Of a stretch of 64,000 nucleotides of DNA, positions 5,242 through 62,618 are shown in pieces. Position 1 is the stretch's first letter, and every line of letters starts with the position of its first letter. Origin of the DNA: Clostridia bacterium (GTDB taxonomy: Bacteria > Bacillota > Clostridia > Oscillospirales > CAG-272); NCBI GenBank assembly GCA_017961575.1, contig JAGCXA010000044.1:5705-69704 (forward strand). Direction: 5' to 3'. Under the pieces are notes generated by a model. It was not told the DNA's origin, did no database searches, and saw only the letters and a program-made list of their open reading frames with translations. The position numbers and the translations under genes are program-made.

Positions 5242-5267
5242 AGACCCGACGGTGCGGGTCTTTTTTC
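5242..5267 (+). terminator. Intrinsic terminator after the RHH gene
   Basis: The stem agacccg/cgggtct has a 6-nt loop and is followed by tttttt. Confidence 0.7.
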
Positions 5268-45082: not shown

Positions 45083-47242
45083 TTATTTGAGGTAGAGGTG
45101 TGCGAGAATCGGGATGTGGTCGGCAGGATAGGTACTGTCCGTGTCGATGGGATTGTTGACGACGGTGTAGTACGCCGTCCCGAAACTGCCTTTCGTCAGG
45201 ATATAGTCGAAGATCCATTGCGGACGGGTCGTGCGGTTCTGTTCCGCGAGCGTTCCGCCGACGTCGCCCTTGATCTTCGCCTCCGTCCGCGACATTTTGA
45301 AGCCGCCGTCGGTGAAGACTCTCATATTGACCGCGCCCTGTCCCGATCCCTTGTAGTGCGAGTTCATATCGCCGAGAACGATCTGGTCGGGATAGTTCGC
45401 CTTCTGCGTTTCCAGCCAGGCGAGCAGGGTACGGATCTCGTAGCGGCGCACCTTGTCGTCCTCTTCGTGCCCGCTTCCGGTACCGCCGTAGTGCAGATGG
45501 GTGTTGACGACCAGAATTTTTCTCCCGGAGCTCTTCGATTGCAGAACGGCGTAGTGGAAGATCCGGTCGACATTGTCGAGCTTGTTGTTGGCGCTTTCGG
45601 TGTTCGCGACGCCGAGGAGCGTCGCCGCGGTCTTAAACGAGAGCGTTCCCTCGGTTTTCAGGGTGAACTTGGAGGTCTTGAAGAAGATCTCGTTTTTCTC
45701 GAAATCATGCGCGCAGTAATTTCCCGTCAGCCGGGTGTATCCGCCTTCGGTCGCCAGTGAGGCAAGATAGGAGTCCCATCCGTTCTCTCCTTTTTGGTTG
45801 ACTTCCTGGAAGCCGATGACGTCGGGCAGAACGGACAAAACGGTCTCGGTCACCTTCTCGGGATTCCTGCCTTCCCAGCCCTTCCCGCCTTTCGGGCTGT
45901 CGTAGACCGCGATATTATAGCTCATCACGGTGAAGGCGTCGACGTAGCAGAACTGCGACAACTGCTCGCGCTCTGCCGGCGTGTAGGGGCTGTACTTGGT
46001 CTTGTCAAAGGCGCACAGCGTGTACTGATACTTGCTCGTCTTCGAACTGTTGAGATCGTAAAGTTCGATCTCCGCCAAGTCCGCGAGAGAACGCGAGTCG
46101 CTTGCCTGCGAATAGGCGGAATAGCGAAGGATCCGCCCGTCGAGTTCCACGTAGGTCGCAAACGAGTACGCCCGACCGTAATCGGCTTCCGCGATCGGCA
46201 GAACGTGTGCGACGCGATAGGTATTGTCGGAGGCGTTCAGCGTGACGGAAAGTTCCTCTTTCACGTATTTCGGCTCGGCGACGGCGGCGCAGTTATCGAG
46301 CGCCTCGACCGTGAAGGCGAGTCGGTTTTTCGTCAGGTTCTCGGTCGGCGTGAAGAGCATCCCGACCTTGACGCGGTCGGCGCCGTAGGTCGCGTAGAGC
46401 AGGTCGAGGTACCGTCGGCTGATCTGACCGAGGAATCGCATCCCCGTCGGGGACGAGAGCGAGACCGTCGCACCGCTGACCGTTCTGACCGGCGCCGCTT
46501 CGAGCGTGCAGAAACCGAGCAGCTGTTCGCGCTGCGCCGGCGTGTAGGCGCTGTATTTCGTTTGACCGTAGATCCGCACGGCGTTTCGGTACGCGCCCGT
46601 CTCCGTGTCGGAGAGGTCGAACAACATTTCCTCCGCCGCGTTCTTTACCGACCGCGCGTTGTTCGCTTCCGCGTAGACGGCGTAGCGGAGAATGAAGCCG
46701 TCCGCTTCCACGAAGGCGACGGCGGAAAACGTCTTCCCGTAGTCCGCCTCCGCAATATCGGGCAGAACGCAGCGGAAAGTGAACTCGTCGCTTTCCCGGA
46801 GCAGACTCTCGGCTGTGACCCTGACGTACTTCTGCCCGGTCACGGCGTCGCAGCGATCGAGCGCCCGCGCCGTGAAGGGGATCTGGTTCGCCGTCAGGTT
46901 CTCGGTCGCCGTGAAGAGCATCCCGACCTTGACGCGGTCGGCGCCGTACGCGGCGTACAGAGCGTTGAGGTACTGCCGGTTGACGTGTCCCGTGAACTGC
47001 AATCCCGTCGAGGGGACCGTCGTGACCGTCGCGCCGCTCTCCGTCCGGATCGGCGCCGCGGCGTCGTATCCCGCGGGTTCGGTCACCGCCGCGGGAGCGG
47101 CGGCGGTCGTTTCGGGCGCGGTCGCCTCGCCGGAGGGCGTTTCCCCGCCCGCCGTGAGTTCACAGCCCGCGAACACACCTATCATCAGAAGGGCGAATAG
47201 CAAAACCGCTCCCAGGCGGACGCCCCATCGAATCGTTTTCAT
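45083..47242 (-). CDS. Lipoprotein of the endonuclease/exonuclease/phosphatase (EEP) family with two copies of an N-terminal ~170-aa repeat domain
   Basis: The 719-aa ORF has a signal peptide with a lipobox (LLMIGVFAGC). The repeat is internal (PIRTESGATV…YGADRVKVGMLFTATENLT… and PVRTVSGATV…YGADRVKVGMLFTPTENLT…). The C-terminal EEP domain reads …MSYNI…IGFQEVN…VVNTHLHYG…LGDMNS…PADHIP. Confidence 0.75.
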   Translation of the reverse strand: MKTIRWGVRLGAVLLFALLMIGVFAGCELTAGGETPSGEATAPETTAAAPAAVTEPAGYDAAAPIRTESGATVTTVPSTGLQFTGHVNRQYLNALYAAYGADRVKVGMLFTATENLTANQIPFTARALDRCDAVTGQKYVRVTAESLLRESDEFTFRCVLPDIAEADYGKTFSAVAFVEADGFILRYAVYAEANNARSVKNAAEEMLFDLSDTETGAYRNAVRIYGQTKYSAYTPAQREQLLGFCTLEAAPVRTVSGATVSLSSPTGMRFLGQISRRYLDLLYATYGADRVKVGMLFTPTENLTKNRLAFTVEALDNCAAVAEPKYVKEELSVTLNASDNTYRVAHVLPIAEADYGRAYSFATYVELDGRILRYSAYSQASDSRSLADLAEIELYDLNSSKTSKYQYTLCAFDKTKYSPYTPAEREQLSQFCYVDAFTVMSYNIAVYDSPKGGKGWEGRNPEKVTETVLSVLPDVIGFQEVNQKGENGWDSYLASLATEGGYTRLTGNYCAHDFEKNEIFFKTSKFTLKTEGTLSFKTAATLLGVANTESANNKLDNVDRIFHYAVLQSKSSGRKILVVNTHLHYGGTGSGHEEDDKVRRYEIRTLLAWLETQKANYPDQIVLGDMNSHYKGSGQGAVNMRVFTDGGFKMSRTEAKIKGDVGGTLAEQNRTTRPQWIFDYILTKGSFGTAYYTVVNNPIDTDSTYPADHIPILAHLYLK

Positions 47243-47275
47243 CTGTTCTCCTTCCCGTCGTGCGATCGGATCCGA

Positions 47276-48877
47276 TTATTGCAGGAAATAGATCTCCGCC
47301 ATGACCGGAATGTGGTCGGACGGATAGGAGTTGCCGACGTCGTTCGGGTTGTCGACGACGGTATAGTACCCTGCCCCGAGCGCCCCCTTCGTCAGAACGT
47401 GGTCGAAGACGTATTCCGAGCGGGTTTTGCGGTCGGAGACGGCGAGCGTTCCGCCGACGTCGCCCTTGACCTTCGCCGAGAGGGAAGTCATTGCGAATCC
47501 GCCGTTCAGGAACGTCGTCATCGTGCGCGTTCCGCCGTTGTTCGGGTTGTCGGCTTTGTAGTGCGCGTTCATATCGCCGAGAACGATCTGATCGGGATAC
47601 TCCTCCACCTGTAGCTGCAGCCACGCGAGCAGCGCGCTGATCTCGTAGCGGCGCACCTTGTCGTCCTCTTCGTGCCCGTTTCCGGTTCCGCCGTAGTGCA
47701 GATGCGTATCGACCACCAGGACTTTTCTTCCGGTGCCCTTCGTTTCCAGCTTCACGTAGTGGAAGGTCCGACCGTGACTGTCGATCGTGTTGTCCGCGCC
47801 CTCGGGGTTGGACAGTTTCAGGTTCGAGATCACCTGCTTGAAGGTGAACGTCCCTTCGGCGATCATGTTGAACTTATCGGTCTTGAAGAAGATCTCGTTC
47901 TTCTCGAAATTATCGGTGGTATAGCGCCCGGCAACGCGGGTGTAGCCGCCTTGGGCGGCAAGATCGGCGAGGTAGGAGTCCCAACCGATCGTCTCCTTCT
48001 GGTTGACTTCCTGGAAGCCCACGATGTCGGGTAAGGCGGTCTTGACGGTCTCCATCGCGACCAGGGGATTTCTGCCTTCCCAGCCCGCGCCGCCGCTCGG
48101 ACTGTCGTAGACCGCGAGGTTATAGCTCATCGCGGTGACGAAGGTGCAGAACCGCGGCAGCTGCGCGTACTCCGCCGCCGTGTAAGGGCTGTAAACCGTC
48201 TTGCCGTGCAGGGTCACGGCGTTCTGATACTTGTCGGCTTTCGTTTCGCTGACGTCGAGATACCGCTCCCCCGCAAGGCCGGACAGCGAACGGACGTTGT
48301 CGGCGTCCGAGTAGGCGGAATAGCGCAGGATCTTTCCGTCGACCGCCACGTAGGCGACGGCGGAGTAGAGCCGACCGTAGTTCGTCCGCGTGACTTCAAG
48401 CGTGCCGTTGATGCGGTAGACGTTGCCCGAGGCGTCAAGTGCGGGCGCCGACTCGACCTTCACGTATTTCTGTCCGGTCACGGCGGCGCAGGCGTCGAGC
48501 GCCTCGGCGGTGAACGCGATCCCGTTTTTCGTCAGGTTCTCGGTCGCCGTGAAGAGCAGACCGGTTTTGACGTGATCGGCGCCGTACGCCGCGATCAAGG
48601 CGTCGAGATAACCCTTGTCGACCGACCCCGTGTACTTCAACCCGACGGGAGCGGCGAGCGACAGCGTCGCGCCGCCGTCGATTCTGACCGGCGACTCGGC
48701 TCCGTCATATCCGGAGGGCTCGGTCGCCGCCGGGGCCGTCGCCTCGGTCGACGCCGCGGGCTCCTTCACGCAACCCGCGCACGCGAGAACCAAAAGCAGG
48801 ACGAAAAGCAATGTCGCCCCGCATCGAATAGCCCAACGTTTCTTTTCCGTCTTCATTTCGTTTTTGCTCCGTTTCAT
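47276..48877 (-). CDS. Lipoprotein of the EEP family, paralogue with a single copy of the N-terminal repeat domain
   Basis: The 533-aa ORF has the lipobox LVLACAGC, one repeat (PVRIDGGATL…YGADHVKTGLLFTATENLT…) and an EEP domain (MSYNL…VGFQEVN…VVDTHLHYG…LGDMNA…PSDHIP). Confidence 0.75.
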   Translation of the reverse strand: MKRSKNEMKTEKKRWAIRCGATLLFVLLLVLACAGCVKEPAASTEATAPAATEPSGYDGAESPVRIDGGATLSLAAPVGLKYTGSVDKGYLDALIAAYGADHVKTGLLFTATENLTKNGIAFTAEALDACAAVTGQKYVKVESAPALDASGNVYRINGTLEVTRTNYGRLYSAVAYVAVDGKILRYSAYSDADNVRSLSGLAGERYLDVSETKADKYQNAVTLHGKTVYSPYTAAEYAQLPRFCTFVTAMSYNLAVYDSPSGGAGWEGRNPLVAMETVKTALPDIVGFQEVNQKETIGWDSYLADLAAQGGYTRVAGRYTTDNFEKNEIFFKTDKFNMIAEGTFTFKQVISNLKLSNPEGADNTIDSHGRTFHYVKLETKGTGRKVLVVDTHLHYGGTGNGHEEDDKVRRYEISALLAWLQLQVEEYPDQIVLGDMNAHYKADNPNNGGTRTMTTFLNGGFAMTSLSAKVKGDVGGTLAVSDRKTRSEYVFDHVLTKGALGAGYYTVVDNPNDVGNSYPSDHIPVMAEIYFLQ

Positions 48878-49741: not shown

Positions 49742-49845
49742 TATACCCGAACGGGTATATTTCACGTTTGGATGCTCTGAATTATACCTTAACGGGTATA
49801 AAATTTTAAAAAAGCATTGACATTATACCCGATAGGGTATATAAT
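49742..49845 (+). promoter_or_regulatory. hipB promoter with three phased palindromic operators
   Basis: Three operators of the form TATACCC-N4-GGGTATA lie at 49742-49759, 49783-49800 (one mismatch) and 49824-49841, with 41-bp centre-to-centre spacing. TTGACA (49817-49822), a 17-nt spacer and TATAAT (49840-49845) form the promoter, and the third operator fills the spacer. Confidence 0.7.
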
Positions 49846-49879
49846 TGTCATAGAAAACAACGATCGGGAGATATTGATT

Positions 49880-50083
49880 ATGAACCGAATTGCAGAATAC
49901 GTAAAGAAACACAGAAAAGAAGCCGGGCTCACACAGGAAGAATTCGCTATGCGTTCGGGGTTGGGACTTCGTTTTGTCCGCGATCTCGAGCAGGGCAAAG
50001 AAACGCTTCGTATGGATAAAGTCAACGTTGCGCTTGAAATGTTCGGCGCCGTCGCTGTTCCGGGCAGAAAGGATGATCAATGA
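49880..50083 (+). CDS. hipB: XRE-family HTH protein, HipB-like component of a tripartite HipBST-type toxin-antitoxin
   Basis: The 67-aa product begins MNRIAEYVKKHRKEAGLTQEEFAMRSGLGLRFVRDLEQGKETLRMDKV. The ATG at 49880 follows GGGAG and lies downstream of the predicted promoter. The listed start at 49817 coincides with the -35 hexamer. It forms an ATGA overlap with the next gene. Confidence 0.8.
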   Translation: MNRIAEYVKKHRKEAGLTQEEFAMRSGLGLRFVRDLEQGKETLRMDKVNVALEMFGAVAVPGRKDDQ

Positions 50084-50412
50084 TGGAAGCGTTCAGAAAA
50101 GCGTACGTCTACGTGAGAAACGTCTTTGCCGGGATCCTTTCGGAAACCGATTCCGGTTATCGTTTCACGTACGATAATGAGTATTTGAAATCAGAAAACA
50201 CTACGCCCGTATCACTCACACTTCCGCTCGTCGACACCCCGTACGAATCGAAAACTTTATTTCCGTTTTTCGACGGATTGATTCCGGAAGGGTGGCTGCT
50301 GGGCGTCGTCACCCGAAACTGGAAGATCGACGTGAAAGATCGTTTCGGATTGTTGCTTATCGCTTGCAAAGACGGGATCGGCAACGTGACCGTTGCGGAG
50401 GAAAAGAAATGA
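50080..50412 (+). CDS. hipS: HipA N-terminal-subdomain protein (HipS-like)
   Basis: The 110-aa ORF contains …VFAGILSETDSGYRFTYDNEYL…PVSLTLPL…FPFFDGLIPEGW…, the HipA N-terminal 'couple' domain encoded as a separate gene. It has ATGA overlaps on both sides. Confidence 0.75.
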   Translation: MMEAFRKAYVYVRNVFAGILSETDSGYRFTYDNEYLKSENTTPVSLTLPLVDTPYESKTLFPFFDGLIPEGWLLGVVTRNWKIDVKDRFGLLLIACKDGIGNVTVAEEKK

Positions 50413-51359
50413 TTTGTTATTGCTGTGGGAAACCGCTTGATGATCACAACGAAAACGGTTGGCATCCGGCGTGCGTCAAACGCTTTTTCGGGACCTCCGT
50501 ACTCCCTCGGATTGAGATTGATGAAGACACTTTGGAAAAGCTTGCAAGCGAGTATACGAGGAAGGGCATAACCGTTCCGGGCGTTCAGAAAAAACTGTCG
50601 CTGCATTTGCACTCGGGCAGTGCAGGCTCACGTTTGACGCTTGTCAATTATCCTACCGGCTATATTCTCAAACCGCAGGTTTCGGATTATGAATCTCTGC
50701 CTGAGGCGGAACAATTGGTAATGACGATGGCGGATCATACCGGCATCGTCACCGTTCCTCACGCGCTGATAAAGAACGGGGATTCTTTTGCATATATCAC
50801 AAAGCGTGTCGACCGGATCTTTGGAAAAACAGGCGTTGAGATGCTTGCAATGGAAGATTTCTGCCAGTTGGATCTTCGTTTGACGCAAGACAAATATCGG
50901 GGTTCATACGAACGTTGCGCGAAAATAATTACGACCTATTCTTCACAACCGAAATTGGATCTGACGGAACTTTTTATGCGAATCGTGTTCTCGTACATCG
51001 TGGGGAATTCGGATATGCACTTGAAAAACTTTTCGTTACTTGAAACCAAAGAAGCAAGCGGCAACTATACGTTGTCTCCGGCATACGATCTGCTACCGGT
51101 CAACCTCATTATGCCGGAAGACAAAGAAGAATTCGCTCTGACGCTGAATGGAAAGAAGAACAATATTCGAAAGAAAGACTTTTTCCTATTCGCGGAAAAG
51201 TGCGGACTGCAAAAGCCGTCTGCTACCAAAATGATTGAGAAGATCGTATCTCTGAAGTCGCGTTATCTTGAAATGTGCGCCGAGTCTTTCATGCCGTCGC
51301 ACTTGAAGGAACGCTTTGCGGAGTTGATTGAGAAACGGTGCGCGGTGTTGCAGAAATAA
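50409..51359 (+). CDS. hipT: HipA-family serine/threonine kinase toxin core (HipT-like)
   Basis: The 316-aa product starts at the ATG at 50409 (MICYCCGKPL…WHPACVKRFFG). It has a P-loop-like segment VPGVQKKLSL and the catalytic region …VGNSDMHLKNFSLL…SPAYDLLP…. Confidence 0.8.
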   Translation: MICYCCGKPLDDHNENGWHPACVKRFFGTSVLPRIEIDEDTLEKLASEYTRKGITVPGVQKKLSLHLHSGSAGSRLTLVNYPTGYILKPQVSDYESLPEAEQLVMTMADHTGIVTVPHALIKNGDSFAYITKRVDRIFGKTGVEMLAMEDFCQLDLRLTQDKYRGSYERCAKIITTYSSQPKLDLTELFMRIVFSYIVGNSDMHLKNFSLLETKEASGNYTLSPAYDLLPVNLIMPEDKEEFALTLNGKKNNIRKKDFFLFAEKCGLQKPSATKMIEKIVSLKSRYLEMCAESFMPSHLKERFAELIEKRCAVLQK

Positions 51360-51640
51360 AAAGCAGAGAGTTATTATTGCTATTTGTTGTATCGTATGCT
51401 ACAATAATAACAGGAGAATCGTTAGGATGTGCCTTTTTTAGATTTCGTTATCTATCATGATTTGTCATTTATAACCAAAACGAAAACTGTTGGCTCTGAT
51501 TGATAATGTTGAGTTTTAGTTTTCAATAAACCGCGAGAAAACCAAAAACGCAATCCAATGCAATAAAGAGTTGCGTGTATCATTTTACTACTAGGGTAAT
51601 GAGCGCAGAAAAAAAGAATGCCTGCAAGGAGATTATTTAG

Positions 51641-52909
51641 ATGATTAATGTGTCAGTAACAGATATCGGCGATATTGGGATAGATGACAAATGGAACAAT
51701 TGTGATGAAAACGAACTGATTATGCACAGCATTCATGCATATCCCGCGAAGTTTCCTGCTTTTATTGCCAGAAAAGCATTTAGTTATGCCGAAGAAGAAG
51801 GCGTGAAGATAGAAAGTGTTGCGGACATTTTTTGTGGGTGTGGGACGGTTGCTTTGGAAGCAAAAATACACAACAAAAGTTTTTTGGGGTATGATATTAA
51901 TCCAGTTGCAACATTAATCGCGAAAACGAAAAGTAATAATTATATTTTGAAAGAATTGAAGTCGTATTTTAAGATAATCGAAAAGGAATATGAAGCTTAT
52001 GCTCCTGATCATAGCGTTTATGAAAGTGCAAACGAGCGTTTGAAGTATTGGTTCTCCATCAATAATTATATTGCACTGCTAAGAATAAAACACGCTATTG
52101 AAGTTGCAATTCCCCGTGGGAAATATAGAGATGCATTTTATTGTTTGTTTTCATCTATTCTGAAAGCATCTTCTCACTGGTTAACGAAGTCAATCAAGCC
52201 ACAAGTTGATCCCGAGAAACTAGATAAGAATCCGTGGCATTTATTTGCTGATCAGTATCAGAAATTCGAAAGAGCGGTTGAACAAATAAATAATTGCAAT
52301 CTTTTGAATCAAAGAATTAACATTTTCACTCAAAACTTTATCGCAAAGAAGTCATTTGAACCTGTAGATTTGATTATTTCCAGCCCACCATACGTTACGT
52401 CATATGAATACGCTGATCTTCATCAGCTTTCTTCGTTATGGCTAGACTATACTGATGATTATAAAACTCTAAGAAAAGGATCAATAGGAAGTGTATATAA
52501 TAGCGATGGATTCAATCTTCAACTTGAAGAATTGAATAATTGCGGTCAGAGAATTGTTCAGGAATTGCTTGGCGATAAGCAAACTCCATCATCAAAAGTG
52601 AAATCGGTTGCAAGGTATTATACGGACATGCAGCATACTATTCACAATTGCACCAAGATGCTACGCAAATCTGGCATGGCATTCTTCGTCGTCGGGGATA
52701 CAGAGTACAAAGGCGTAAAAATTCAAAATTCTGAGCATTTAATTGAATGTATGGTCAATGAGGGGTTCTCAGATATTAAAGCAGCAAAAAGAACCATCTC
52801 CAATAAACTATTGACTCCTTATAGAGACAACGCAGGGAAGTTTACATCAGATAAATCAAGCAGAACAATTTATCACGAAGAGTTTTTAATTAGTGGGAGG
52901 TTGTTTTAA
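51641..52909 (+). CDS. DNA (N6-adenine or N4-cytosine) methyltransferase with motif I upstream of motif IV
   Basis: The 422-aa ORF has the AdoMet motif I DIFCGCGTVALEA (aa ~62-74) and the catalytic motif IV IISSPPYV (aa ~235-242), with about 160 aa between them (alpha-class-like order). The RBS is AAGGAG. The next gene starts 2 nt after its stop. Confidence 0.75.
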   Translation: MINVSVTDIGDIGIDDKWNNCDENELIMHSIHAYPAKFPAFIARKAFSYAEEEGVKIESVADIFCGCGTVALEAKIHNKSFLGYDINPVATLIAKTKSNNYILKELKSYFKIIEKEYEAYAPDHSVYESANERLKYWFSINNYIALLRIKHAIEVAIPRGKYRDAFYCLFSSILKASSHWLTKSIKPQVDPEKLDKNPWHLFADQYQKFERAVEQINNCNLLNQRINIFTQNFIAKKSFEPVDLIISSPPYVTSYEYADLHQLSSLWLDYTDDYKTLRKGSIGSVYNSDGFNLQLEELNNCGQRIVQELLGDKQTPSSKVKSVARYYTDMQHTIHNCTKMLRKSGMAFFVVGDTEYKGVKIQNSEHLIECMVNEGFSDIKAAKRTISNKLLTPYRDNAGKFTSDKSSRTIYHEEFLISGRLF

Positions 52910-52910
52910 A

Positions 52911-55148
52911 ATGCATGAGAGTTTAACGATTAAGCCGTATGCAAGATTGCTCACAATGTTAGGTGATCAATTGATAAAGAACGAATTGATTGCTCTTTCA
53001 GAATTGATAAAGAACTCCTATGATGCGGACGCTTCATGGGTCAGAGTATCTTTTGTCGATTTCGAAGAAGATTTCACGAAAAAACCAACTTCGAAGATTA
53101 TCATCGAAGACGATGGAAACGGGATGGATTCTGGTATATTAAAAAAGCATTGGCTGAATCCTGCTACTCCCGAGAAATTAAAAAAGAAAAAGAAAAATAC
53201 AACTACTCAGTTAGGACGGGTTTTGCAAGGAGAAAAAGGAATCGGGCGTTTCGCTATTTTCAAACTCGGGAAAACCATCACTATAACAACTCGTAGACAG
53301 TTACAAGATGACAAAGGCGTTTTTGTCGAGGGTGGAGATGATCATGAGTATGTTTTGAAATATGATTTTTCAAAATATGATGAAGATTTCATTACTGAAG
53401 ATGGTGAAGAAAAGGATCTGTTTTTAGATAATCTTAGTGTCTCTTTGGATACAATTCAACCGGCTTCGATTGTTAGCAAAGAAATAGTTTTGGGCTCTGT
53501 AAAAAAAACAAGGAAACCGCACGGAACCATAATTGAAATATCGGATTTAAAAACCAGTTGGACAAGGGCCAGAGTCGAAAAAATACAAAAAGAAGTTGGG
53601 AAACTTCAACCGATTTTTGCAGACAAAGGCGGCTCAGATTTTTCTGTTTGGATTTGCAAAAATGAAGATTTAGTGGGGGGATACGATTCATACAAAGAAA
53701 AACTGAACAAATGTTTACAAAACAAATCTGTTTTTAGAATTAAAAAGGGAGTATTTAATTGCGAATCGAAACTGATATCTTTTGAAATAAACGAACAACC
53801 CATAAAACTAAGTTTTCAAGATCCGGAGATTAGAGGTCTGGATACTTTTACTAAGCACTTTAAAGATTTGAAGAGGAATCTTGAATGTGGAGATTTTTCT
53901 TTCGAATTTTATATTTTTGATCTTAATTCGAACTCTATCGAAAAAACAAAATACTATCTAGATAAAGAAGAAGTTGATTTAATTAAAGAACACCGAATCT
54001 ATCTATATAGAGACGGTCTAAGAGTTATGCCATACGGAGACCCATCTGATGATTGGCTTGGAATCGATATCGCGCGAGGAACGATTCGCGCCACCGAGTT
54101 TTTAAGTAACGACCAGGTTGTTGGATGCGTATATATAACTCAAAAGAATAATCCATTATTGCGAGACAAAACCAACAGAGAAGGACTCATTGACGAAGGT
54201 AATGCTTTAGATGACTTCATCAGTGTGCTTCAAGTTATTTTGCGATACCTTCGTTGCAAGCCTTTTGCGCAGTATCTGATTGAAAAAAACAAAAAAGCAG
54301 AGATTGATAGAATCAAAAAAGGGCTTCCTTCAGAACTCATTGAAACCGCAAAAAAGAAGTTCGAAGGAGATGACAAGGCGTTAAACTTTCTTAAGTCATT
54401 TGAATCAAGCTATTCTCAGGAAAAACGAGTTTATGAGGAGCGCATTAAAAAGACTGAAAACCTCGCTGCAGTAGGACTTTCAGTTGAAACGGCTTCTCAC
54501 GATATGATGATTTTCTTAAGAAGAGGTTTGGAAGCCCTGGATGGAATAATACGAGAATTATCGTTTGGTGAAGAGATTGATAAAGATCATCTTGTGGAAA
54601 GATTAACGCTCATAAAAGGCAATTTTTCTATTATAGAAAGTCAAATGAAGGATGTTCAACTCCTTTTCCCCTCGACAAAGTCCAAAACAAAAAATATTGA
54701 TGTTAATGATATTATGGATAAGGTTTATAATCTTTATAGACGCGCATGCAACGAGAATAACATCAATGTTCATTTTGCCAAAACCAGCAAGCCCCTTATT
54801 GTGAAAACTACGGATGCAGTTTTATTGCAAGTTTTTATTAATCTGTTTGACAATTCGCTATATTGGTTGAAAACGGTCAATAGGGAAAGGAATATTCTGA
54901 TTACAATCGATGGCGACAATCAAAGATTGATCTTTTCTGACAATGGACCAGGCGTAAGAGAAGAAGACAAGAATTATATTTTTGAAGCTTTTTATTCAGG
55001 AAAAGGACAAGATGGACGCGGATTAGGTTTATATATAGCGAGACAACTATTAGATCGTTATGATTATTCCATTGACGTGGCAGAGTTTTCCACCGATAAA
55101 AAACTTCCTGGTGCAAACTTTGTTTTGGAATTCATTAGAGAGGTGTAA
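52911..55148 (+). CDS. Cytoplasmic dual-GHKL protein: an N-terminal MORC/Hsp90-like ATPase domain plus a C-terminal histidine-kinase transmitter (DHp + CA)
   Basis: The ATG at 52911 follows GGGAGG, giving 745 aa. The N-terminal Bergerat motifs are ELIKNSYDA (aa 31-39), DDGNGM (67-72) and GEKGIGRFA (107-115). The C-terminal motifs are the H-box ETASHDMM (His530), the N-box NLFDNSLYW (aa 644-652), G1 SDNGPGV, F FEAFYSG and G2 GRGLGLYIARQL. No hydrophobic TM segment is seen. Confidence 0.75.
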   Translation: MHESLTIKPYARLLTMLGDQLIKNELIALSELIKNSYDADASWVRVSFVDFEEDFTKKPTSKIIIEDDGNGMDSGILKKHWLNPATPEKLKKKKKNTTTQLGRVLQGEKGIGRFAIFKLGKTITITTRRQLQDDKGVFVEGGDDHEYVLKYDFSKYDEDFITEDGEEKDLFLDNLSVSLDTIQPASIVSKEIVLGSVKKTRKPHGTIIEISDLKTSWTRARVEKIQKEVGKLQPIFADKGGSDFSVWICKNEDLVGGYDSYKEKLNKCLQNKSVFRIKKGVFNCESKLISFEINEQPIKLSFQDPEIRGLDTFTKHFKDLKRNLECGDFSFEFYIFDLNSNSIEKTKYYLDKEEVDLIKEHRIYLYRDGLRVMPYGDPSDDWLGIDIARGTIRATEFLSNDQVVGCVYITQKNNPLLRDKTNREGLIDEGNALDDFISVLQVILRYLRCKPFAQYLIEKNKKAEIDRIKKGLPSELIETAKKKFEGDDKALNFLKSFESSYSQEKRVYEERIKKTENLAAVGLSVETASHDMMIFLRRGLEALDGIIRELSFGEEIDKDHLVERLTLIKGNFSIIESQMKDVQLLFPSTKSKTKNIDVNDIMDKVYNLYRRACNENNINVHFAKTSKPLIVKTTDAVLLQVFINLFDNSLYWLKTVNRERNILITIDGDNQRLIFSDNGPGVREEDKNYIFEAFYSGKGQDGRGLGLYIARQLLDRYDYSIDVAEFSTDKKLPGANFVLEFIREV

Positions 55149-55152
55149 AAAA

Positions 55153-56505
55153 ATGGATGTAAAAAGGTTTTTTAATGGAGTTGCAGTAATAATTGATGAT
55201 CAAATAGACGATAAAGAGTCAGAGATATATCAGATAAGGAACAATTTGATTAATAACAATATTCCAGTTCTTCCATTTGATCGCGTTCCATCACAAGAGA
55301 TTATTTCTTCTTTGTCTTCTGTTTCTTTTATAATACTCGATTGGGATTTTTTCCATGGGATTATTGGGAATGCAAATGGGGACGAACTTGATCCTGGAAT
55401 CATTCTGCCAGAAGAGTTAGGCAAAGAAGAAGAGAATCGCTTAATTACTTTCATTAGAAAACTGCTCAAATCAATTTTTGTACCGATTTTCATTTTTACA
55501 TCCAAACCTATTGATGGTATTCAATCGAAGCTAGTTAATGAATCGTTGTACTTTCAAGATAAGCCCAATAGACTCTTCATTAAAAGCAAAGGAGAAGTTT
55601 TAACAGAAGATGATCTTTTTGCCACTCTTGATGATTGGTTGAACGATTCGCCTTCTGCTTATGTTCTCAAAGCATGGAACGAAACAATCGTTGAGGCTCG
55701 CAATGATACATTTATTGAATTATACAATTGTTCGCCAAACTGGGTTAAACTTATTTGGGAAACTATAAAGAATGATAGTATTGACAGTCAGGAAGAATTT
55801 GGGGCTTTTTTAACTAAAAATTTAATCAACCATATCAAGGGATATAGTTTTCAAGAAGAAGTTTTAGACAGAAGTGTTGACGGAAATAATGAAAAAGATA
55901 TTATAAGTATTATTGAAAAAGAGCGTTTTGTACGCTATGAGAGTCAACCCAACCAAGCATATACAGGCGATTTGTTTAAAATATCCGGCGGGAAATACTT
56001 TTTAAATATTCGTGCTCAGTGCGATTTATCACGTATCAAAAAACAAACCAATGAATATGCCCCCGAACTTTTTGGCATTGAAGGAGAAGTTCTTAATAGC
56101 AAAGATATTGTTTCTAGTGACATTAGGTTAACTAGTGAAGGACAATTGGTTTTTGAGAACCAAGAACCGTTTTCTTTAGATGCATTAAGCGAAATCTGTC
56201 GCAATGATGAAGAGCTTATCGCTTTTAACGGAAAATTTCGGCGCTATAGAAACAAAGTATTCTTCCAAAATGGAACATTTATTGGCAGGTCAGATAAAAT
56301 AATAATATGTTGCATTGACGGAAAAAGAATCCTCCAATTTGATTTAAATCTAAAATGCCGTTCATTTGCAGAGATAAAAGATAAAAGAGTTGGTCGAATT
56401 TTGCCACCATATATAACTCAAATACAGCAAAAGTGTTCGGCATACCTAATTAGAGAAGGCACCATTCCTACACCACAAAAGATTATTGAGGATTTTTCCA
56501 ATTGA
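55153..56505 (+). CDS. Receiver (CheY-like) domain protein with an unknown ~300-aa C-terminal domain (candidate effector)
   Basis: The ATG at 55153 gives 450 aa. Receiver landmarks are VAVIIDDQ (D15,D16), SFIILDWDF (D63), IFIFTS (T116) and DKP (K137-P138), with CheY-like T-to-K spacing. The C-terminal two-thirds have no motif I can name. Confidence 0.65.
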   Translation: MDVKRFFNGVAVIIDDQIDDKESEIYQIRNNLINNNIPVLPFDRVPSQEIISSLSSVSFIILDWDFFHGIIGNANGDELDPGIILPEELGKEEENRLITFIRKLLKSIFVPIFIFTSKPIDGIQSKLVNESLYFQDKPNRLFIKSKGEVLTEDDLFATLDDWLNDSPSAYVLKAWNETIVEARNDTFIELYNCSPNWVKLIWETIKNDSIDSQEEFGAFLTKNLINHIKGYSFQEEVLDRSVDGNNEKDIISIIEKERFVRYESQPNQAYTGDLFKISGGKYFLNIRAQCDLSRIKKQTNEYAPELFGIEGEVLNSKDIVSSDIRLTSEGQLVFENQEPFSLDALSEICRNDEELIAFNGKFRRYRNKVFFQNGTFIGRSDKIIICCIDGKRILQFDLNLKCRSFAEIKDKRVGRILPPYITQIQQKCSAYLIREGTIPTPQKIIEDFSN

Positions 56506-56547
56506 ATAATGGGTCGCATCACTGATACAGTGATGCGACCCATTATT
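56505..56547 (+). terminator. Perfect 20-bp hairpin immediately after the three-gene operon
   Basis: aataatgggtcgcatcactg-ata-cagtgatgcgacccattatt starts in the stop codon. No clear T-run follows, so it may act as an mRNA-stabilising or terminating element. Confidence 0.55.
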
Positions 56548-56820
56548 CAAGCATTTTCAAACCCTTCAAAGACTGATGAGTTTTTGGAATTCAGCTTGGA
56601 AGACAGGTACTGTCTTTTCAGAATTTGTTCTTGATTAAGCTCGAATCATCGGAAGGAACACAAATGACCAACTGGCTTTGGCGTAAGTGAACAAAAAGCA
56701 AGAGACTTTCTTGACGTATAGTGATAAAAAAGAAAAACAACTTATCAATATACTGGATGAATTGCAAAGATAGCAAGAACGCGGGCTCCGAATTGCTTTC
56801 AGAGTCCGCGTCTTCTTTTA

Positions 56821-57722: not shown

Positions 57723-57932
57723 ATGATTACAAAAGATTTAGGGAAGCGTCTGCAAGAACTCAGAAAAGAGAAAACCGGTCTGTCTCAGGAGAAGTTTGCG
57801 TTCAAGATTGAGATGGACCGTACTTATTATGCGTCCGTCGAAGCCGGCAGGCGAAACATCTCCATTATCAATATCAAGAAGATCGCCGACGGACTGGGGA
57901 TCTCACTTAGCGAACTGTTTGAGGGATTATAA
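57723..57932 (+). CDS. XRE-family HTH protein in the position of an R-M controller (C) protein
   Basis: The 69-aa ORF encodes …LRKEKTGLSQEKFAFKIEMDRTYYASVEAGRRNISIINIKKIADGLGISLSELF. It has C-protein-like size and sits directly upstream of the methyltransferase genes. The RBS is GGAGGA. Confidence 0.7.
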   Translation: MITKDLGKRLQELRKEKTGLSQEKFAFKIEMDRTYYASVEAGRRNISIINIKKIADGLGISLSELFEGL

Positions 57933-57963
57933 TTTTCGCCGCTCAGAACGTGTGCCCAAGAAT

Positions 57964-58902
57964 ATGAAAGTATGTAGTTTGTTTAGCGGAATCGGCGGCA
58001 TCGATCTTGGTTTCATTCAAGCAGGATTTGAGGTCGTATGGGCGAATGAAAAAGATCCTGCCGCTTGTAGAACGTATCGTCACAATTTTGGTGATGCAAG
58101 CCTAGTAGAAGGAGATATAACCAAAATCCCCGCCTCCGCTATACCGGATTTTGACGTTCTCGTTGCGGGCTTTCCGTGTCAGCCTTTTTCTATAGCCGGG
58201 AAACAACGCGGCTTTGAAGACAAAAGAGGCAACTTGTTTTTTGAAATAACGCGAATCATTGACGCCAAACGCCCCAAAACGATTTTCCTTGAAAACGTAC
58301 CCAATTTGGTCGAACACGACGATGGTCGAACGTTTCTTGTTATTTTTAACTCGCTCGCTCAGTTTGGCTATAACGTGTATTACCGGGTTATGTCTGCAAA
58401 CGAATACGGCAACATCCCGCAGGCGAGAAAACGGATTTATATTGTCGCCGTTCACGAGAGTCTGAACGTTCACTATACACATCCAGACGTAGTTGAATTA
58501 AAGGTTGGCGTAAACAGCATAGTAGATCGGTCAAATCGTAAGAAAGATATCTACTACTATAAAGAGGGTCCTTTCCTAGATCAGATTCGTAACGTGGTTC
58601 AGAATAAAACAATAATTTACGGTATTCACGATGATCGTCCTCAACCAATGAAAAACGGTCTTTGTCCAACGTTAACGGCAGGTATGGGTACTCATGAGAA
58701 TAGAGTTCCAGTATTGGTTGACGATTTTGGCATAAGAAAATTAACTATCAGAGAGTGTCTCGATTTTCAGGGCTTTCCTAAAAGTTTTGCTTTCCCCAAC
58801 AATCTATCTTTGCAAGACGCATACAAACAAATAGGCAATTCTGTATGTGTTCCTCTTATAAAACGAATTGCCGTTAGTATTTTGAATTGCATATCCAATT
58901 GA
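57964..58902 (+). CDS. DNA (cytosine-5)-methyltransferase
   Basis: The ATG at 57964 gives MKVCSLFSGIGGIDLGF (motif I). Other motifs are GFPCQPFS (IV), ENVPNL (VI), QARKRIYIV (VIII) and IGNSVCVP (X). The listed ORF start at 57796 overlaps the C gene. Confidence 0.9.
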   Translation: MKVCSLFSGIGGIDLGFIQAGFEVVWANEKDPAACRTYRHNFGDASLVEGDITKIPASAIPDFDVLVAGFPCQPFSIAGKQRGFEDKRGNLFFEITRIIDAKRPKTIFLENVPNLVEHDDGRTFLVIFNSLAQFGYNVYYRVMSANEYGNIPQARKRIYIVAVHESLNVHYTHPDVVELKVGVNSIVDRSNRKKDIYYYKEGPFLDQIRNVVQNKTIIYGIHDDRPQPMKNGLCPTLTAGMGTHENRVPVLVDDFGIRKLTIRECLDFQGFPKSFAFPNNLSLQDAYKQIGNSVCVPLIKRIAVSILNCISN

Positions 58903-58926
58903 GAAGCGTTCTAGGAGGCTAAGAAC

Positions 58927-61074
58927 TTGATTAATGCGTTATCTTTATTTGCCGGTATTGGCGTCGGCGAATTCTATTTGGATCAGTGTGGTATAAACGT
59001 AGTGTTAGCAAACGAAATAGTGCGTTCTCGTGCAGAAGCGCATTCTATTCTTCATCCAAAATGCGAGGTGCTGACCGCAGATATTACCAAAGAAGAAACG
59101 CAAAATGAAATAATTAAAAAGAGCGTGGCGAAAAACGTAGAAATGGTAATCGCCACTCCTCCGTGCCAAGGTTTGAGCACCGCCGGTAGCAACAAGACCG
59201 AAGAATCGCTGCTGGACGATCCAAGGAACTTTTTAATCCTGTCCGCGCTAAAGATAGTCGACGCTTTGGCTCCAAAGTATTTTGTGATCGAAAACGTTCC
59301 GCGTTTTCAACAAATGCTTTTTCCTTATGAAAACAAGCTCGTTCGGTTGATCGATTTGTTAAAAGCCAAATACTCAGAGCAATATCACGTTAGAGTCGAC
59401 GTGTTCAACGCCGCGGAATATGGTGTTCCCCAAACGAGATTTCGCGTCGTCTATAGGTTGTGGAAAAAAGGATTTGCTTGGAATGATCCGAAGAAAAAGC
59501 CTATAGTAACGCTTAAAGACGCAATCGGCGACCTTCCGTCTCTTGAGCCTGGAGAAAAAAGCAGCATAAAAAACCATTATGCGTTGATGCATCCGCAAAA
59601 CCATATTGAATGTATGCGGCACACCCCTACCGGAAAGTCGGCTTTCAAAAACGAAGAGTTTTTCCCGAAAAAGCCGGATGGATCTAGAATTAAGGGTTAT
59701 GGTAATAGTTATAAACGTATGAGATGGGATGCACCAGCGCCTACTATTACTATGAGAAATGAAATCGTATCTTCGCAGGAGAACGTACATCCAGGCAGAC
59801 CGTTGGGTAACGGTGTGTGGAGCGACGCACGCGTTCTTACTCTTAGAGAGTTGCTGATCGTTTCCTCTCTTCCTGCAGATTTAGATAAACCCGAAAACTT
59901 AACCGAAACCGCGTTCAGACAGCTAATCGGCGAAGGTATTCCCCCGGTATTGATGAAAGAGATTATGAACGGTATAAACGATACTCAAGACAAAACCATT
60001 GCTTTATCAATGTTTTCCGGCGGCGGTATTGCGGAAACGTATTTTGAGAGCGTCGGCATTCACGTTGCAGTTGCTAACGAACTGTTGCCCGAAAGAGCAA
60101 AGTTTTATAGCCACGTTTATCCAAACACAAAAATGATCTGCGGTAGCATCGCAGATTCTTCCGTGTTTGAGAGCGTAATGACCGAAGCAAAAAACGCCGG
60201 TGTAAAGTTTATTTTAGCAACCCCCCCTTGCCAAGGGATGAGTACGTTGGGTAAACGTAATTATGAATCCGACAGCCGCAATTCTTTGATAAAATACGTG
60301 CTAAAGGCAATTGATAGACTTGATCCGGATTACGTTATGATTGAGAACGTTCCCAAATTTGTTGAGTTGCTTTACGACGAAGACGGAAGCACCTATTACG
60401 TAGATTCCGCCAAATCGAAACAACCGTATCGTATCGTTGAATTGCTCCAGAAAAGATTCGGGAGCAAGTATAACGTTGAAATGAAGATCCTTAACGCGAT
60501 GAATTACGGTGTTCCTCAGAGTCGCCCAAGAGTTATCATCAAGGTTTATAAGAAGGGGCTTTCTTGGAGTTGGCCGGAAGAAGATCAGCACGTTATCACC
60601 CTTCGAGAAGCAATTGGAGACCTACCATCTCTTGAGTCTGGAGAACGCTCGGGTATCAAATGGCATAACGCATTGCGTCACAACGCAAGACAGATTGAAG
60701 CGCTTCGTCACACTCCGGAAGGCAAGAGCGCAATGAAAAATGAGGTTTACTATCCGAAAAAAGCAGACGGGACAAGAGTTAAAGGCTTCCATAACACGTA
60801 TAACAGAATGCGTTGGGATGAACCTGCTCCCGCAAGAACGACAAACAATCACTTAATAAGCGGGCACAACAACGTTCATCCTGGAAGGCTTCTTCCCGAC
60901 GGCACGTGGAGCGACGCAAGAGTTCTTACGTTTAGAGAATTGGTAATCGTTTCATCTTTGCCTTTGGATTGGAATATTCCGAATGATTTTCCGGAAGCGG
61001 ATGTCCGTATTATCATCGGTGAAGCAATTCCGCCGCTCCTCAGCAAGAAGATTGCAGAACAAATCGGGAGGTAA
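58927..61074 (+). CDS. Tandem-fused double DNA (cytosine-5)-methyltransferase (two complete m5C catalytic modules)
   Basis: The 715-aa ORF has a TTG start after AGGAGG. Module 1 carries LFAGIGVGE, TPPCQGLS, ENVPRF and QTRFRV. Module 2 carries MFSGGGIAE, TPPCQGMS, ENVPKF and QSRPRV. The variable regions of both halves are closely similar (HTPTGKSAFKNEEFFPKK… and HTPEGKSAMKNEVYYPKK…). Confidence 0.9.
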   Translation: MINALSLFAGIGVGEFYLDQCGINVVLANEIVRSRAEAHSILHPKCEVLTADITKEETQNEIIKKSVAKNVEMVIATPPCQGLSTAGSNKTEESLLDDPRNFLILSALKIVDALAPKYFVIENVPRFQQMLFPYENKLVRLIDLLKAKYSEQYHVRVDVFNAAEYGVPQTRFRVVYRLWKKGFAWNDPKKKPIVTLKDAIGDLPSLEPGEKSSIKNHYALMHPQNHIECMRHTPTGKSAFKNEEFFPKKPDGSRIKGYGNSYKRMRWDAPAPTITMRNEIVSSQENVHPGRPLGNGVWSDARVLTLRELLIVSSLPADLDKPENLTETAFRQLIGEGIPPVLMKEIMNGINDTQDKTIALSMFSGGGIAETYFESVGIHVAVANELLPERAKFYSHVYPNTKMICGSIADSSVFESVMTEAKNAGVKFILATPPCQGMSTLGKRNYESDSRNSLIKYVLKAIDRLDPDYVMIENVPKFVELLYDEDGSTYYVDSAKSKQPYRIVELLQKRFGSKYNVEMKILNAMNYGVPQSRPRVIIKVYKKGLSWSWPEEDQHVITLREAIGDLPSLESGERSGIKWHNALRHNARQIEALRHTPEGKSAMKNEVYYPKKADGTRVKGFHNTYNRMRWDEPAPARTTNNHLISGHNNVHPGRLLPDGTWSDARVLTFRELVIVSSLPLDWNIPNDFPEADVRIIIGEAIPPLLSKKIAEQIGR

Positions 61075-61078
61075 GCGT

Positions 61079-62593
61079 ATGTGTTATAACCGTGATGATT
61101 CTAAAGAAAAATGGACCATCATGATGTATATGAGAGACTTTGATTTGATGGTCACTTATGCGTACGCGCTGAGATCTTCTAACGAATTGACGAGCGAAAA
61201 CATAGACGAAATACTGCTCAGGATGGAAGAGGAAGGGATTTATCGTCCTCGAAACGGAGGAAGTACGTTTACCGGTCAGTTCAAATCAATCCAAATCGCG
61301 TGGTACATGTTTGGTTATTACAACAATTCAAGGCGAAAAGACGAGCAAAAAAAGATGGTTTTTAGCCCGTTGGGGAATCTTTTGCTTGACAACGTGAAGG
61401 ACCGAGAAAAAGTTGCAAAAATCTTTACAACGATGCTGTTTGGAAACGGATTTAGGCAGCCGTTCAGTAGAATGGATGCGCGATTCAACATATACGCGTA
61501 TCGTCTTATTTTCAAGCTGTTAAGAGATCCGCGACTTAACGGTAAACTCTACAACGACGAAGTGTTCTACTACGCGATGTTTATAAAAACCATCGATGAA
61601 AACCAATACGAGGAGCTTGTTCACGATATTCTTGCTTTTCGAAACGTGTCACCTTACGAGAAATTAAGGCTTTTTAAGGAGCATGAAAGAGTAATTGGAT
61701 TAGCGTGCCACGAATGGAGATACGCAACGGGGATGCTTGAATCTGCCGGTATCGTGAACGTACGTAACGACAACGATCATCGCGTAATCGGCGAATTAAC
61801 GTATGGAAACGTTAGTAAAGCCACGGGAAAGCCCAACGCAGTAAGACGGTATACCGAAGACTACATAGTGTTGAGAGACAGCTTGGAACAGTACGTTGAC
61901 GTATTGTTGGACAACTATCGATACTATGAGAAGCCGTTTCCTGAAGACGAACTAACAACGAGATTTAATAGTTCTATCGTCGTTGATATGTATTCTTTCT
62001 ATCCTCCCGAGCTTCTACGTGAGATCGGAGAAGATACGGAAGAAGATCAAGCGATTTCTATGATGTTAAGCGTTGCTAGAGACGTGTTTTACTATTCTCA
62101 TGAGGAAACGAATACCGGAGAACAATTCGAAAGAGCGTTAACCGCCGCTTTTAATCTGTTTGAGGACGTAGAAGCAGAAAGAATTGGCGGCGCAGGCAAC
62201 GCAGACGCAGAGTGCATATATTACCCCGAGGAATTACCTCCAAAGAAATTCGACGTTGAAGCAAAATCAACTTCAAGAAAGCTTCTGCAAATCAATTCAA
62301 GGCGCTTGAAAACGCACAGATTAATGATCGGCTCAAAGTATACGATGATAGTTACTCCGAACTTCTCAATCGGCGTACTTAAGGATATTGCCGGAGAGAA
62401 TTCCGTAATAATCAAAGCAGCAACGCTCGCTAATTATCTTTATCAGTATATCGTTAAAAATGGCAGGGAGCTATCATACGCAAAGCTTGATAAGATAGTT
62501 GAAGCAAATTTGGGAAAAGATATCACGGACAACGTAAACGATTACGTGTATAGCAACTTTGGGCATGCGGCAACCGACTTGAGCGCCAGGTAA
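61079..62593 (+). CDS. Restriction endonuclease, type IIS-like, with a FokI-like C-terminal PD-(D/E)XK cleavage domain
   Basis: The ATG at 61079 follows GGGAGG, giving 504 aa. The C-terminal segment ERIGGAGNADAECIYY…KKFDVEAKST parallels the FokI catalytic pattern (GG…PD…IY…D-x-K). It is positioned between the methyltransferase genes and vsr. Confidence 0.65.
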   Translation: MCYNRDDSKEKWTIMMYMRDFDLMVTYAYALRSSNELTSENIDEILLRMEEEGIYRPRNGGSTFTGQFKSIQIAWYMFGYYNNSRRKDEQKKMVFSPLGNLLLDNVKDREKVAKIFTTMLFGNGFRQPFSRMDARFNIYAYRLIFKLLRDPRLNGKLYNDEVFYYAMFIKTIDENQYEELVHDILAFRNVSPYEKLRLFKEHERVIGLACHEWRYATGMLESAGIVNVRNDNDHRVIGELTYGNVSKATGKPNAVRRYTEDYIVLRDSLEQYVDVLLDNYRYYEKPFPEDELTTRFNSSIVVDMYSFYPPELLREIGEDTEEDQAISMMLSVARDVFYYSHEETNTGEQFERALTAAFNLFEDVEAERIGGAGNADAECIYYPEELPPKKFDVEAKSTSRKLLQINSRRLKTHRLMIGSKYTMIVTPNFSIGVLKDIAGENSVIIKAATLANYLYQYIVKNGRELSYAKLDKIVEANLGKDITDNVNDYVYSNFGHAATDLSAR

Positions 62594-62618
62594 CGTGTGA
62601 TTTGATGGTATTGACACA

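Follow-up and report, generated by a model that had tools for sequence, protein, structure and literature searches.

A conserved cassette of a DNA methyltransferase, a dual-GHKL kinase-like protein and a receiver protein as a candidate phosphotransfer-gated module of the restriction-modification type

What could a DNA methyltransferase, a soluble protein with two GHKL-type ATP-binding folds and a receiver protein accomplish together that would keep them in a single genetic unit? The question is raised by an operon in a 64,000-nucleotide stretch of DNA from a Clostridia bacterium (assembly GCA_017961575.1, contig JAGCXA010000044.1, positions 5,705 to 69,704 of the forward strand), hereafter the window, whose first letter is position 1 in what follows. 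Three genes succeed one another on the forward strand: gene 1, encoding an amino-type DNA methyltransferase (51641-52909, an open reading frame (ORF) of 422 amino acids); gene 2, a dual-GHKL kinase-like protein (52911-55148, 745 amino acids counted from its ATG); and gene 3, a receiver protein with an additional output domain (55153-56505, 450 amino acids counted from its ATG). The tight co-directional packing noticed in an earlier, model-made account of the letters alone (the sequence-only reading) is borne out by the ORF list and by reads of the junctions, with a single nucleotide between genes 1 and 2 (TAA-a-ATG) and four between genes 2 and 3 (TAA-aaaa-ATG). We narrowly favor the view that this triad is a methylation-marked, phosphotransfer-gated module of the restriction-modification type, serving defense or addiction.

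Anatomy and conservation of the three genes

Gene 2 combines two Bergerat folds. Its N-terminal half (residues 1-500; 52911-54410, forward strand) is an Hsp90/MORC-type GHKL ATPase followed by a conserved middle domain, and its C-terminal part (54411-55148, forward strand) is a histidine-kinase transmitter with a DHp helix and N, G1, F and G2 boxes. Pfam recognizes the folds as HATPase_c_3 (PF13589; residues 28-130, 4e-19) and HATPase_c (PF02518; residues 638-739, about 2e-17, precisely 1.8e-17). Searched as a profile, the N-terminal half matches the Hsp90/GRP94/HtpG N-domain at 5e-7, and solved histidine kinases align to residues 506-725, as 3a0r does at 1e-9 over residues 506-715. Conservation was read from alignments of 47-48 sequences per protein, each comprising the window copy and orthologues from 46-47 loci. 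In the N-terminal fold E31, N35, D38, D67, G69, G71, G107, K109, G110 and G112 are present in all 48 sequences, as are the H-box histidine and its acidic neighbor, H530-D531 (codons at 54498-54503), and N644 and N648 in the transmitter. The G1 (D677, G679, G681), F (F691, F694) and G2 (G702, G704, G706) residues are kept in 47 of 48, with one gap. Gene 2 thus has the conserved H-box histidine and the four boxes expected of a two-component kinase, and it has no hydrophobic stretch of transmembrane grade. Pfam, the PDB alignments and the conservation agree with what had been proposed for this gene from the letters, namely two Bergerat folds and a complete transmitter around His530 in a protein without membrane segments.

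Between the two folds lie about 250 residues that match no library; within them RIYLYRDGxRVxPYG and LxDKTNREGL are strongly conserved motifs. On the model of MORC, MutL and GyrB, we read this middle domain as a putative transducer (S5-like) domain. Toward the other end of the protein, residues 496-727 (54396-55091) match phrog_8137 at 1.7e-44, which indicates that phage or prophage genomes encode kinase-like proteins related to gene 2; a gene 3 homologue occurs in only one viral contig.

Could gene 2 be the endonuclease of a conventional type II pair, of the BbrUII/HgiDII type, with gene 3 as an accessory? The best NCBIfam match of gene 2 is indeed to BbrUII/HgiDII (5e-20), and its only PADLOC (2023) match at E <= 0.1 is REase_II (1.4e-10). 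However, both matches are confined to residues 14-142, that is, to the N-terminal GHKL fold. The NCBIfam match reaches 71.5 bits against a cut-off of 550 and leaves positions 130-659 of the 659-position model unmatched, where any nuclease part would lie, and residues 506-725 of gene 2 are the very region that aligns to solved histidine kinases. No nuclease family matches gene 2 or gene 3, and neither is a recognizable restriction endonuclease. Because the GHKL fold alone is matched, gene 2 is ruled out as a BbrUII/HgiDII restriction enzyme, and we regard the conventional-pair explanation as a whole as very improbable.

Gene 3 begins with a CheY-like receiver domain (residues 1-165; 55153-55647, forward strand) that the sequence libraries pass over. 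Neither gene 3 nor 43 of its orthologues, the latter at E <= 10, matches anything in Pfam, NCBIfam, PHROGs or PDB sequences; PF00072 does not score on gene 3, and PADLOC at E <= 0.1 gives just a weak Cas6 match. An AlphaFold2 model built on a 43-sequence alignment, with a moderate predicted local distance difference test score (pLDDT) of 73.8, opens with a clear (beta-alpha)5 fold, continues in helices and ends in a beta-rich part. Its best Foldseek matches are the receivers WspR, FixJ, KdpE, CheY and PhoB, at target-normalized template modeling (TM) scores that reach 0.70. The residues that define a receiver are conserved: D15, D63, W64 and K146 in 48 of 48 sequences, an acidic pair completed at position 16 (D in 38, N in 6, E in 4), and threonine (31) or serine (17) at position 116. 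D63, the phospho-acceptor, is encoded at 55339-55341, and K146 (55588-55590) directly follows the modeled strand 141-145, which makes it the beta-5 lysine. Gene 3 therefore has the acidic pair, phospho-acceptor aspartate, Thr/Ser, lysine and (beta-alpha)5 fold of a receiver. The sequence-only reading had described this domain with D15/D16, D63, T116 and K137-P138 as landmarks; the domain itself, D15, D63 and T/S116 stand, while K137-P138 does not, as position 137 is a lysine in only 18 of 48 sequences and the beta-5 lysine is K146.

Gene 1 is predicted from its motifs and family matches to be an amino-type methyltransferase, N4-cytosine or N6-adenine. It matches PF01555 (N6_N4_Mtase, 1.2e-12), the phage methylase family phrog_18146 (1.2e-33) and, across its full length, the PADLOC profile MTase_II (2.3e-35), which relates it to type II methyltransferases. 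Motif I (FCGCGT, residues 64-69) and motif IV (SPPY, residues 248-251) are separated by about 180 residues, and FxGxG (residues 64-68) and SPPY are invariant in 47 orthologues. The amino-type assignment first made from FCGCGT and SPPY is well founded on these matches and invariant motifs. The best PDB matches, which are weak, are N4-cytosine methyltransferases, and the SPPY motif presumably also points to that type. In a clade of nine loci the methylase is about 32% identical to that of the window and the kinase 41-48%, which suggests a methylase swap or a specificity change inside the family.

The three genes are inherited as a unit. A locus scan that took one genome per species, with ORFs searched by phmmer, yielded 58 loci, and the methylase-kinase-receiver order and strand are kept in all of the roughly 50 whose upstream DNA extends far enough. 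Genes 2 and 3 co-occur in these loci, and the methylase is always linked to them. Across 41 loci, gene 2 is on average 53% identical to its counterpart in the window, gene 1 49% and gene 3 37%; the three proteins diverge together, with gene 3 evolving fastest. In five loci gene 2 is split into two or three ORFs; these include a near-identical metagenomic copy of the window's own locus (4522-6758 of that copy), and in one of the other four gene 3 is split too.

The hosts of the triad comprise Clostridia, Negativicutes, Bacilli, Bacteroidota, Synergistaceae, Cloacimonadota and gamma-, delta- and epsilon-proteobacteria, together with Planctomycetota, Actinomycetes, Patescibacteria, Omnitrophota, Atribacterota, Acidobacteria and one archaeon, a Woesearchaeote. 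At E <= 1e-3 the gene 3 family amounts to 659 clusters at 50% identity (1.84 billion representatives). In a survey of about 45 loci that took in, on either side, the two closest ORFs of 110 amino acids or more, no Pfam family appeared in more than 4 of the 150 ORFs. Since no flanking family recurs more widely than this, we take the cassette to be complete in three genes and to lie within variable, mobile surroundings. The triad is a horizontally mobile unit, patchily distributed across phyla, and not a housekeeping two-component pair. Its patchy phyla, low-GC island and mobile and restriction-modification neighbors argue against a housekeeping role, which had been named among the findings that would refute the original proposal.

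Relation to known systems

The sequence-only reading knew of no described system with this architecture. In this it was incorrect, because a computational description has existed since 2021 (PMC8011034). Beginning from a Pectobacterium locus, Bellieny-Rabelo, Pretorius and Moleleki described receiver-like proteins beside HATPase_c_3 + DHp + HATPase_c proteins, at a linkage of 91.6% over 644 regions; a C5 methylase is usual on the upstream side, and the vicinity often has Vsr or HNH genes (PMC8011034). The gene pairs were connected there with restriction-modification and paraMORCs; the role suggested for them was regulation, not effector action, and the output domain goes undescribed (PMC8011034). 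In the literature that we searched, a 2026 machine-learning paper has HATPase and REC only among the abbreviations of a figure of unvalidated predicted systems.

The locus shares with this HEF_HK/Response_reg_2 class a methylase, a soluble HATPase_c_3-DHp-HATPase_c protein in which the DHp histidine is followed by an acidic residue (His-Asp/Glu), an adjacent receiver-like protein without other known domain, and mobile, restriction-modification-rich surroundings. It differs from the class in having an amino-methyltransferase where the C5 type predominates, and in the length of its receiver protein, 450 amino acids against about 630. The families are also separate in the libraries. Gene 2 has no PF19191 (HEF_HK) match at E <= 0.1, and PF19192 (Response_reg_2) matches neither gene 3 and its 43 orthologues (E <= 10) nor 10 distant relatives (E <= 0.01); orthologues of gene 2, too, go unmatched by these models. 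The two models do work, because proteins of a true class member, on a Pantoea dispersa plasmid, match them: there a C5 methylase accompanies a 989-residue kinase-like protein that scores 26.9 bits with HEF_HK (cut-off 24.1) and a 629-residue receiver-like protein (Response_reg_2, 70 bits). Pfam annotation is absent from 120 of the 120 listed relatives of gene 3, and PF19192 is present on 120 of the 120 listed relatives of the Pantoea protein. A profile-profile comparison of the gene 3 and Response_reg_2 families is not significant (E = 0.087). By these comparisons the locus is a separate family, a distinct branch of a broad known class that carries an amino-methylase.

Searching with gene 2 by tblastn widens the class further, with full-length relatives at 24-30% identity. 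Those on Campylobacter pTet-type plasmids and on Acaryochloris pREB1 come with a C5 methylase and a response regulator touching PF00072, and those of Acinetobacter, Bacillus cereus and Agrobacterium with a partner of about 630 amino acids. In Bacteroides finegoldii and Klebsiella variicola the relative is accompanied by a protein that consists of a receiver alone, and next by an HNH nuclease encoded separately and an N6 methylase. The Response_reg_2 family itself has more than 500 clusters among the matches listed.

A second comparison is with Detocs, which consists of the DtcA kinase, the DtcB buffer receiver and the DtcC receiver-nucleosidase. The triad resembles Detocs in its His-to-Asp design, in a receiver fused to a non-transcriptional output and in its defense-island setting. 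It differs in lacking a buffer receiver, in having a GHKL ATPase as sensor in place of a repeat domain, in its strictly linked methylase and in matching no nucleosidase family. Nor do the triad flanks hold a conserved second receiver gene. Detocs and MADS were both rejected as identifications: PADLOC gives nothing for either beyond a short segment of the gene 1 methylase that matches mad2 of MADS. The locus is therefore not Detocs, as had been argued from the letters. More generally, the PADLOC and profile searches place genes 2 and 3 in no named defense system, the PADLOC matches of note being those to gene 1 and to the N-terminal GHKL fold.

The occurrence of GHKL ATPases in restriction-modification contexts is established (Iyer et al. 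2008, PMC2292703). The triad is like paraMORCs and MORCs in its N-terminal HATPase_c_3 Bergerat fold and conserved middle domain, linked to methylases and nucleases. The C-terminus of paraMORCs, however, is a nuclease or TIR domain, or they have a helicase partner, whereas here it is a histidine-kinase core that stands beside a separate receiver-gated protein. Receivers do not feature in Iyer et al., where the term histidine kinase appears only in the expansion of GHKL (PMC2292703). That a GHKL ATPase can control a fused nuclease is known from VcSduA, a GHKL-nuclease (Shedu) fusion with proven anti-phage activity (PMC12137116).

The output domain and the proposed relay

If gene 3 is a receiver, what does the receiver control? 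Its first domain is followed by a helical linker (residues 166-258; 55648-55926, forward strand) with conserved positions, which opens on a conserved DW(L/K)xxPS motif (W162, P167, S168 of gene 3) that lines up with the Response_reg_2 family in a non-significant comparison. A beta-rich output domain (residues 259-450; 55927-56505, forward strand) follows, marked by G272-D273, C290-D291, GRxLPPYI and Q425-Q426; G272, C290, Q425 and Q426 are present in 48 of 48 sequences, and D273, N285 and D291 in 46-47. The roughly 300 residues past the receiver had been described as having no nameable motif, and the absence of any match in the sequence libraries agrees with this.

Modeling the output domain separately (residues 240-450, pLDDT 74.9) tentatively assigns it a MazF/CcdB-like fold, a weak resemblance. 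In the PDB, the top Foldseek match and the majority of those that make geometric sense are MazF/Kid toxins, the best being 4me7_A (E = 0.09, probability 0.89), with target TM scores of 0.5-0.6 (4me7_A 0.58) against about 0.1 for other matches. BFVD ranks a PemK/MazF toxin first (target TM score 0.62, E = 0.038, probability 0.99) and another PemK-like protein fourth. Structural modeling of gene 3, which had been suggested from the outset, thus yields a receiver fold at the N-terminus and a C-terminal part that is weakly MazF/PemK/CcdB-like. Sequence comparison lends this no support: at E <= 10 the toxin models PF02452 and PF01845 match none of 43 family members, a profile of the output domain run against the PDB yields chance matches only, and hhalign against a small MazF alignment of five sequences was not significant at E = 0.34. 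MazF has counterparts to two features of the gene 3 domain, its N-terminal G-D strand and its C-terminal motif of R-x-x-G followed by a helix. In contrast to MazF, the gene 3 domain has a helical insert of about 40 residues and is fused to a receiver, not paired with an antitoxin. We know of no equivalent in MazF or CcdB of the invariant Cys-Asp pair.

Features of the output domain recur in the class. A strand motif, G-(D/H)-h-h … h-h-h-h-x-x-x-C-D, is common to gene 3 (TGDLFKISGGKYFLNIRAQCD) and seven partner proteins of divergent kinase lineages, as in the Campylobacter (TGDIVKKNDDFFIILTPSCD) and Pantoea (SGHIFRLDDTWWVCATPACD) partners, and so is a second, C-terminal motif, R-h-(G/A)…helix…R-x-G. 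The Pantoea dispersa member of the Response_reg_2 class has the same G(D/H)…TPxCD and C-terminal R…G helix motifs. Four hhalign comparisons were made, of the gene 3 family alignment against single partner sequences and, in one profile-profile case, against a 38-sequence Response_reg_2 alignment; none is significant, and the only local alignment in each falls on or across the G-D…C-D motif. Because these comparisons are non-significant, homology of the output domains is argued from motif, architecture and context. On that basis we propose that the G-D…C-D region may be one unnamed effector domain common to the class. Two more specific identifications were rejected. A PD-(D/E)xK nuclease site read by eye from E257…D273…N285-x-R287 fails in that N285 and R287 are lost in sister families and Foldseek finds no nuclease fold, and a caspase-like Cys-His protease reading of the QCD motif fails in that the gene 3 family has no invariant histidine.

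The alternative to an effector is a regulator. In that case the triad would be a cytoplasmic two-component system whose kinase senses an intracellular cue, such as a nucleotide pool or the state of DNA, and whose gene 3 output binds DNA or RNA to control the methylase or other genes. The sole published treatment of the class proposes just such signaling control of restriction-modification (PMC8011034). Gene 3 bears no nuclease signature, small barrels of the MazF/CcdB type and the like may do no more than bind nucleic acid, and a Mogibacterium orthologue has a helix-turn-helix (HTH) gene directly 5' of its cassette. Yet Foldseek matches gene 3 to none of the known output folds that bind DNA, such as winged helix, LytTR or HTH, and the invariant Cys-Asp and Gln-Gln pairs resemble an active or ligand site more than a DNA-reading surface. 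The triad also moves across phyla as a closed unit with no conserved target genes nearby, and in the sister cassettes of Bacteroides finegoldii and Klebsiella variicola an HNH nuclease occupies the slot of the output domain, which argues for an effector over a transcription factor. The regulator stands as an explanation because no nuclease chemistry is recognizable in gene 3; we nevertheless think it unlikely.

Under the methylation-marked, phosphotransfer-gated module that we favor, three steps would link the genes. GHKL and transducer modules dimerize on ATP and clamp DNA or clients, paraMORCs act with methylases and nucleases, and phosphorylated receivers switch fused outputs. First, the gene 1 methylase, as its sequence predicts, would mark host DNA. 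Second, the soluble gene 2 protein would couple a MORC/Hsp90-type, ATP-driven clamp to its kinase core, such that the state of the clamp, most likely its engagement with DNA that lacks the mark, sets autophosphorylation at His530. Third, the phosphoryl group would pass from His530 to Asp63 of the gene 3 receiver, both of which are conserved, and phosphorylation would switch the fused C-terminal domain, a putative beta-barrel with an invariant Cys-Asp pair. The outcome may be an attack on the invader or an arrest of the cell. Anatomy, conservation and linkage of the genes are observed; the trigger, the direction of gating and the chemistry of the effector are the parts of this scheme that we infer.

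Several observations weigh against this scheme. The triad contains no recognizable DNA nuclease, and PADLOC (2023) does not count genes 2 and 3 as defense proteins. The match of the output domain to a toxin fold is weak (E = 0.04-0.09 at a pLDDT of about 75, with sequence support absent), and MazF-type catalytic residues could not be placed in it. Methylation status as the cue sensed by gene 2 is likewise deduced. The flanks of the cassette were taken as a raw tally, with recombinases, transposases, integrases, helicases and further restriction-modification genes in it. The split copies of genes 2 and 3 could reflect decay of a costly cassette, or else assembly or frameshift error. Finally, the literature that we searched holds no experiment on any member of the class and no follow-up of the 2021 paper.

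A bolder version of the hypothesis can be formulated, which we offer tentatively, as possible rather than probable. It holds that the cassettes confer a restriction-like immunity without a classical restriction enzyme, in which a MORC-type clamp would read the mark and a His-to-Asp relay would unlock a Cys-Asp, MazF/CcdB-like effector that is the common output of all paraMORC-kinase cassettes, including those of the Response_reg_2 family.

The island around the operon and its implications

The first 49 kb of the window have a GC content of about 0.61, the operon one of 0.34-0.38; the step near 49000 leads down to 0.32-0.49, and values stay low through the window end (64000). Directly 5' of the operon, at the start of this low-GC island, stands a HipBST-like three-gene set (49817-51359) made up of a 67-residue HTH protein, a 110-residue Couple_hipA (HipS-like) protein and a 316-residue HipA_C (HipT-like) protein. 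On the 3' side the list of immediate neighbors opens with an acetyltransferase, ahead of a second restriction-modification block (57723-63041). This block holds an HTH controller-like gene, a 312-residue C5 methylase, a 715-residue double C5 methylase with two DNA_methylase halves, Vsr, and a 504-residue protein that matches nothing in Pfam and is possibly the endonuclease of the block. After it come a 459-residue protein without known identity and, at the window end, a reverse transcriptase. Gene annotation and the GC profile thus confirm the surroundings sketched by the sequence-only reading, an AT-rich island with a HipBST-type toxin-antitoxin set upstream and a restriction-modification, Vsr and reverse transcriptase block downstream. 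Given the low-GC island and the adjoining toxin-antitoxin set and second restriction-modification block, the operon is probably of foreign origin. No transfer RNA (tRNA) gene lies in the 64 kb, so the insertion site of the island is not marked by one, and the idea of a tRNA or integrase as a marker of the island edge was dropped on the same ground.

These surroundings bear on whether the cassette protects its host or only itself. As a selfish addiction module with no anti-phage role, its loss would let methylation fade while a long-lived sensor and effector killed the cell, thereby stabilizing the island or plasmid. Conjugative plasmids carry the cassette or its relatives, toxin-antitoxin genes adjoin it here and on plasmids, and the fold modeled for the output domain may be toxin-like. 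However, the family is rare on plasmids (gene 3 in 1 of 72,556 records) and nearly absent from viral contigs (a gene 3 homologue at 1 locus in 2.9 million contigs). Addiction is moreover compatible with defense and overlaps the scheme that we favor, as classical type II restriction-modification systems show addiction behavior and defense alike. Purely selfish maintenance seems to us distinctly unlikely.

Several smaller features accompany the operon. A perfect hairpin with a 23-bp stem and a 3-nt loop overlaps the gene 3 stop codon (56502-56550, forward strand). A perfect hairpin had been noticed here before, with a stem given as 20 bp; the structure is present and its stem is longer. Its folding energy of -38.8 kcal/mol (z = -9.6 against shuffles) was equaled by 0 of 200 shuffles. 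The hairpin was rejected as an intrinsic terminator, as the terminator consensus scan passes over it because no U-tract lies 3' of the stem, and it could instead be the boundary of a mobile unit or a protein-binding site. At the other end, the 281-nt gap 5' of gene 1 has no ORF of at least 60 amino acids and contains a promoter-like site (TTGCTA, 17 nt, TACAAT, with TG; 51377-51405, forward strand) that matches 9 of 12 positions in a consensus scan. This site is a candidate only, because the regional count of such sites is not above the shuffled expectation. In the orthologous cassette of Mogibacterium pumilum a 69-residue HTH gene (6283-6492 of that locus) abuts the methylase gene, like a restriction-modification controller. 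Outside the island, the reverse strand of the high-GC host DNA (45083-48877) encodes a pair of neighboring paralogues, 719 and 533 amino acids long, that look secreted and have a C-terminal Exo_endo_phos domain; the larger has its N-terminal segment twice.

The architecture of this locus has been known computationally since 2021, and what is new is a distinct amino-methylase family and a proposed shared output domain. The family is widespread, its design is unusual, and every functional reading of the class members is a predicted one. If the scheme is true, a DNA-sensing MORC-type ATPase signals through a phosphorelay to an effector that is a protein of its own, where other systems have sensor and nuclease fused or in one complex. 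The G-D…C-D domain, found in the partners of at least four divergent kinase lineages, has no name, and its activity, once established, would annotate many hundreds of hypothetical proteins. Eukaryotic MORC proteins answer epigenetic marks by poorly understood mechanisms, and a three-gene bacterial relative would be a tractable experimental model for them.

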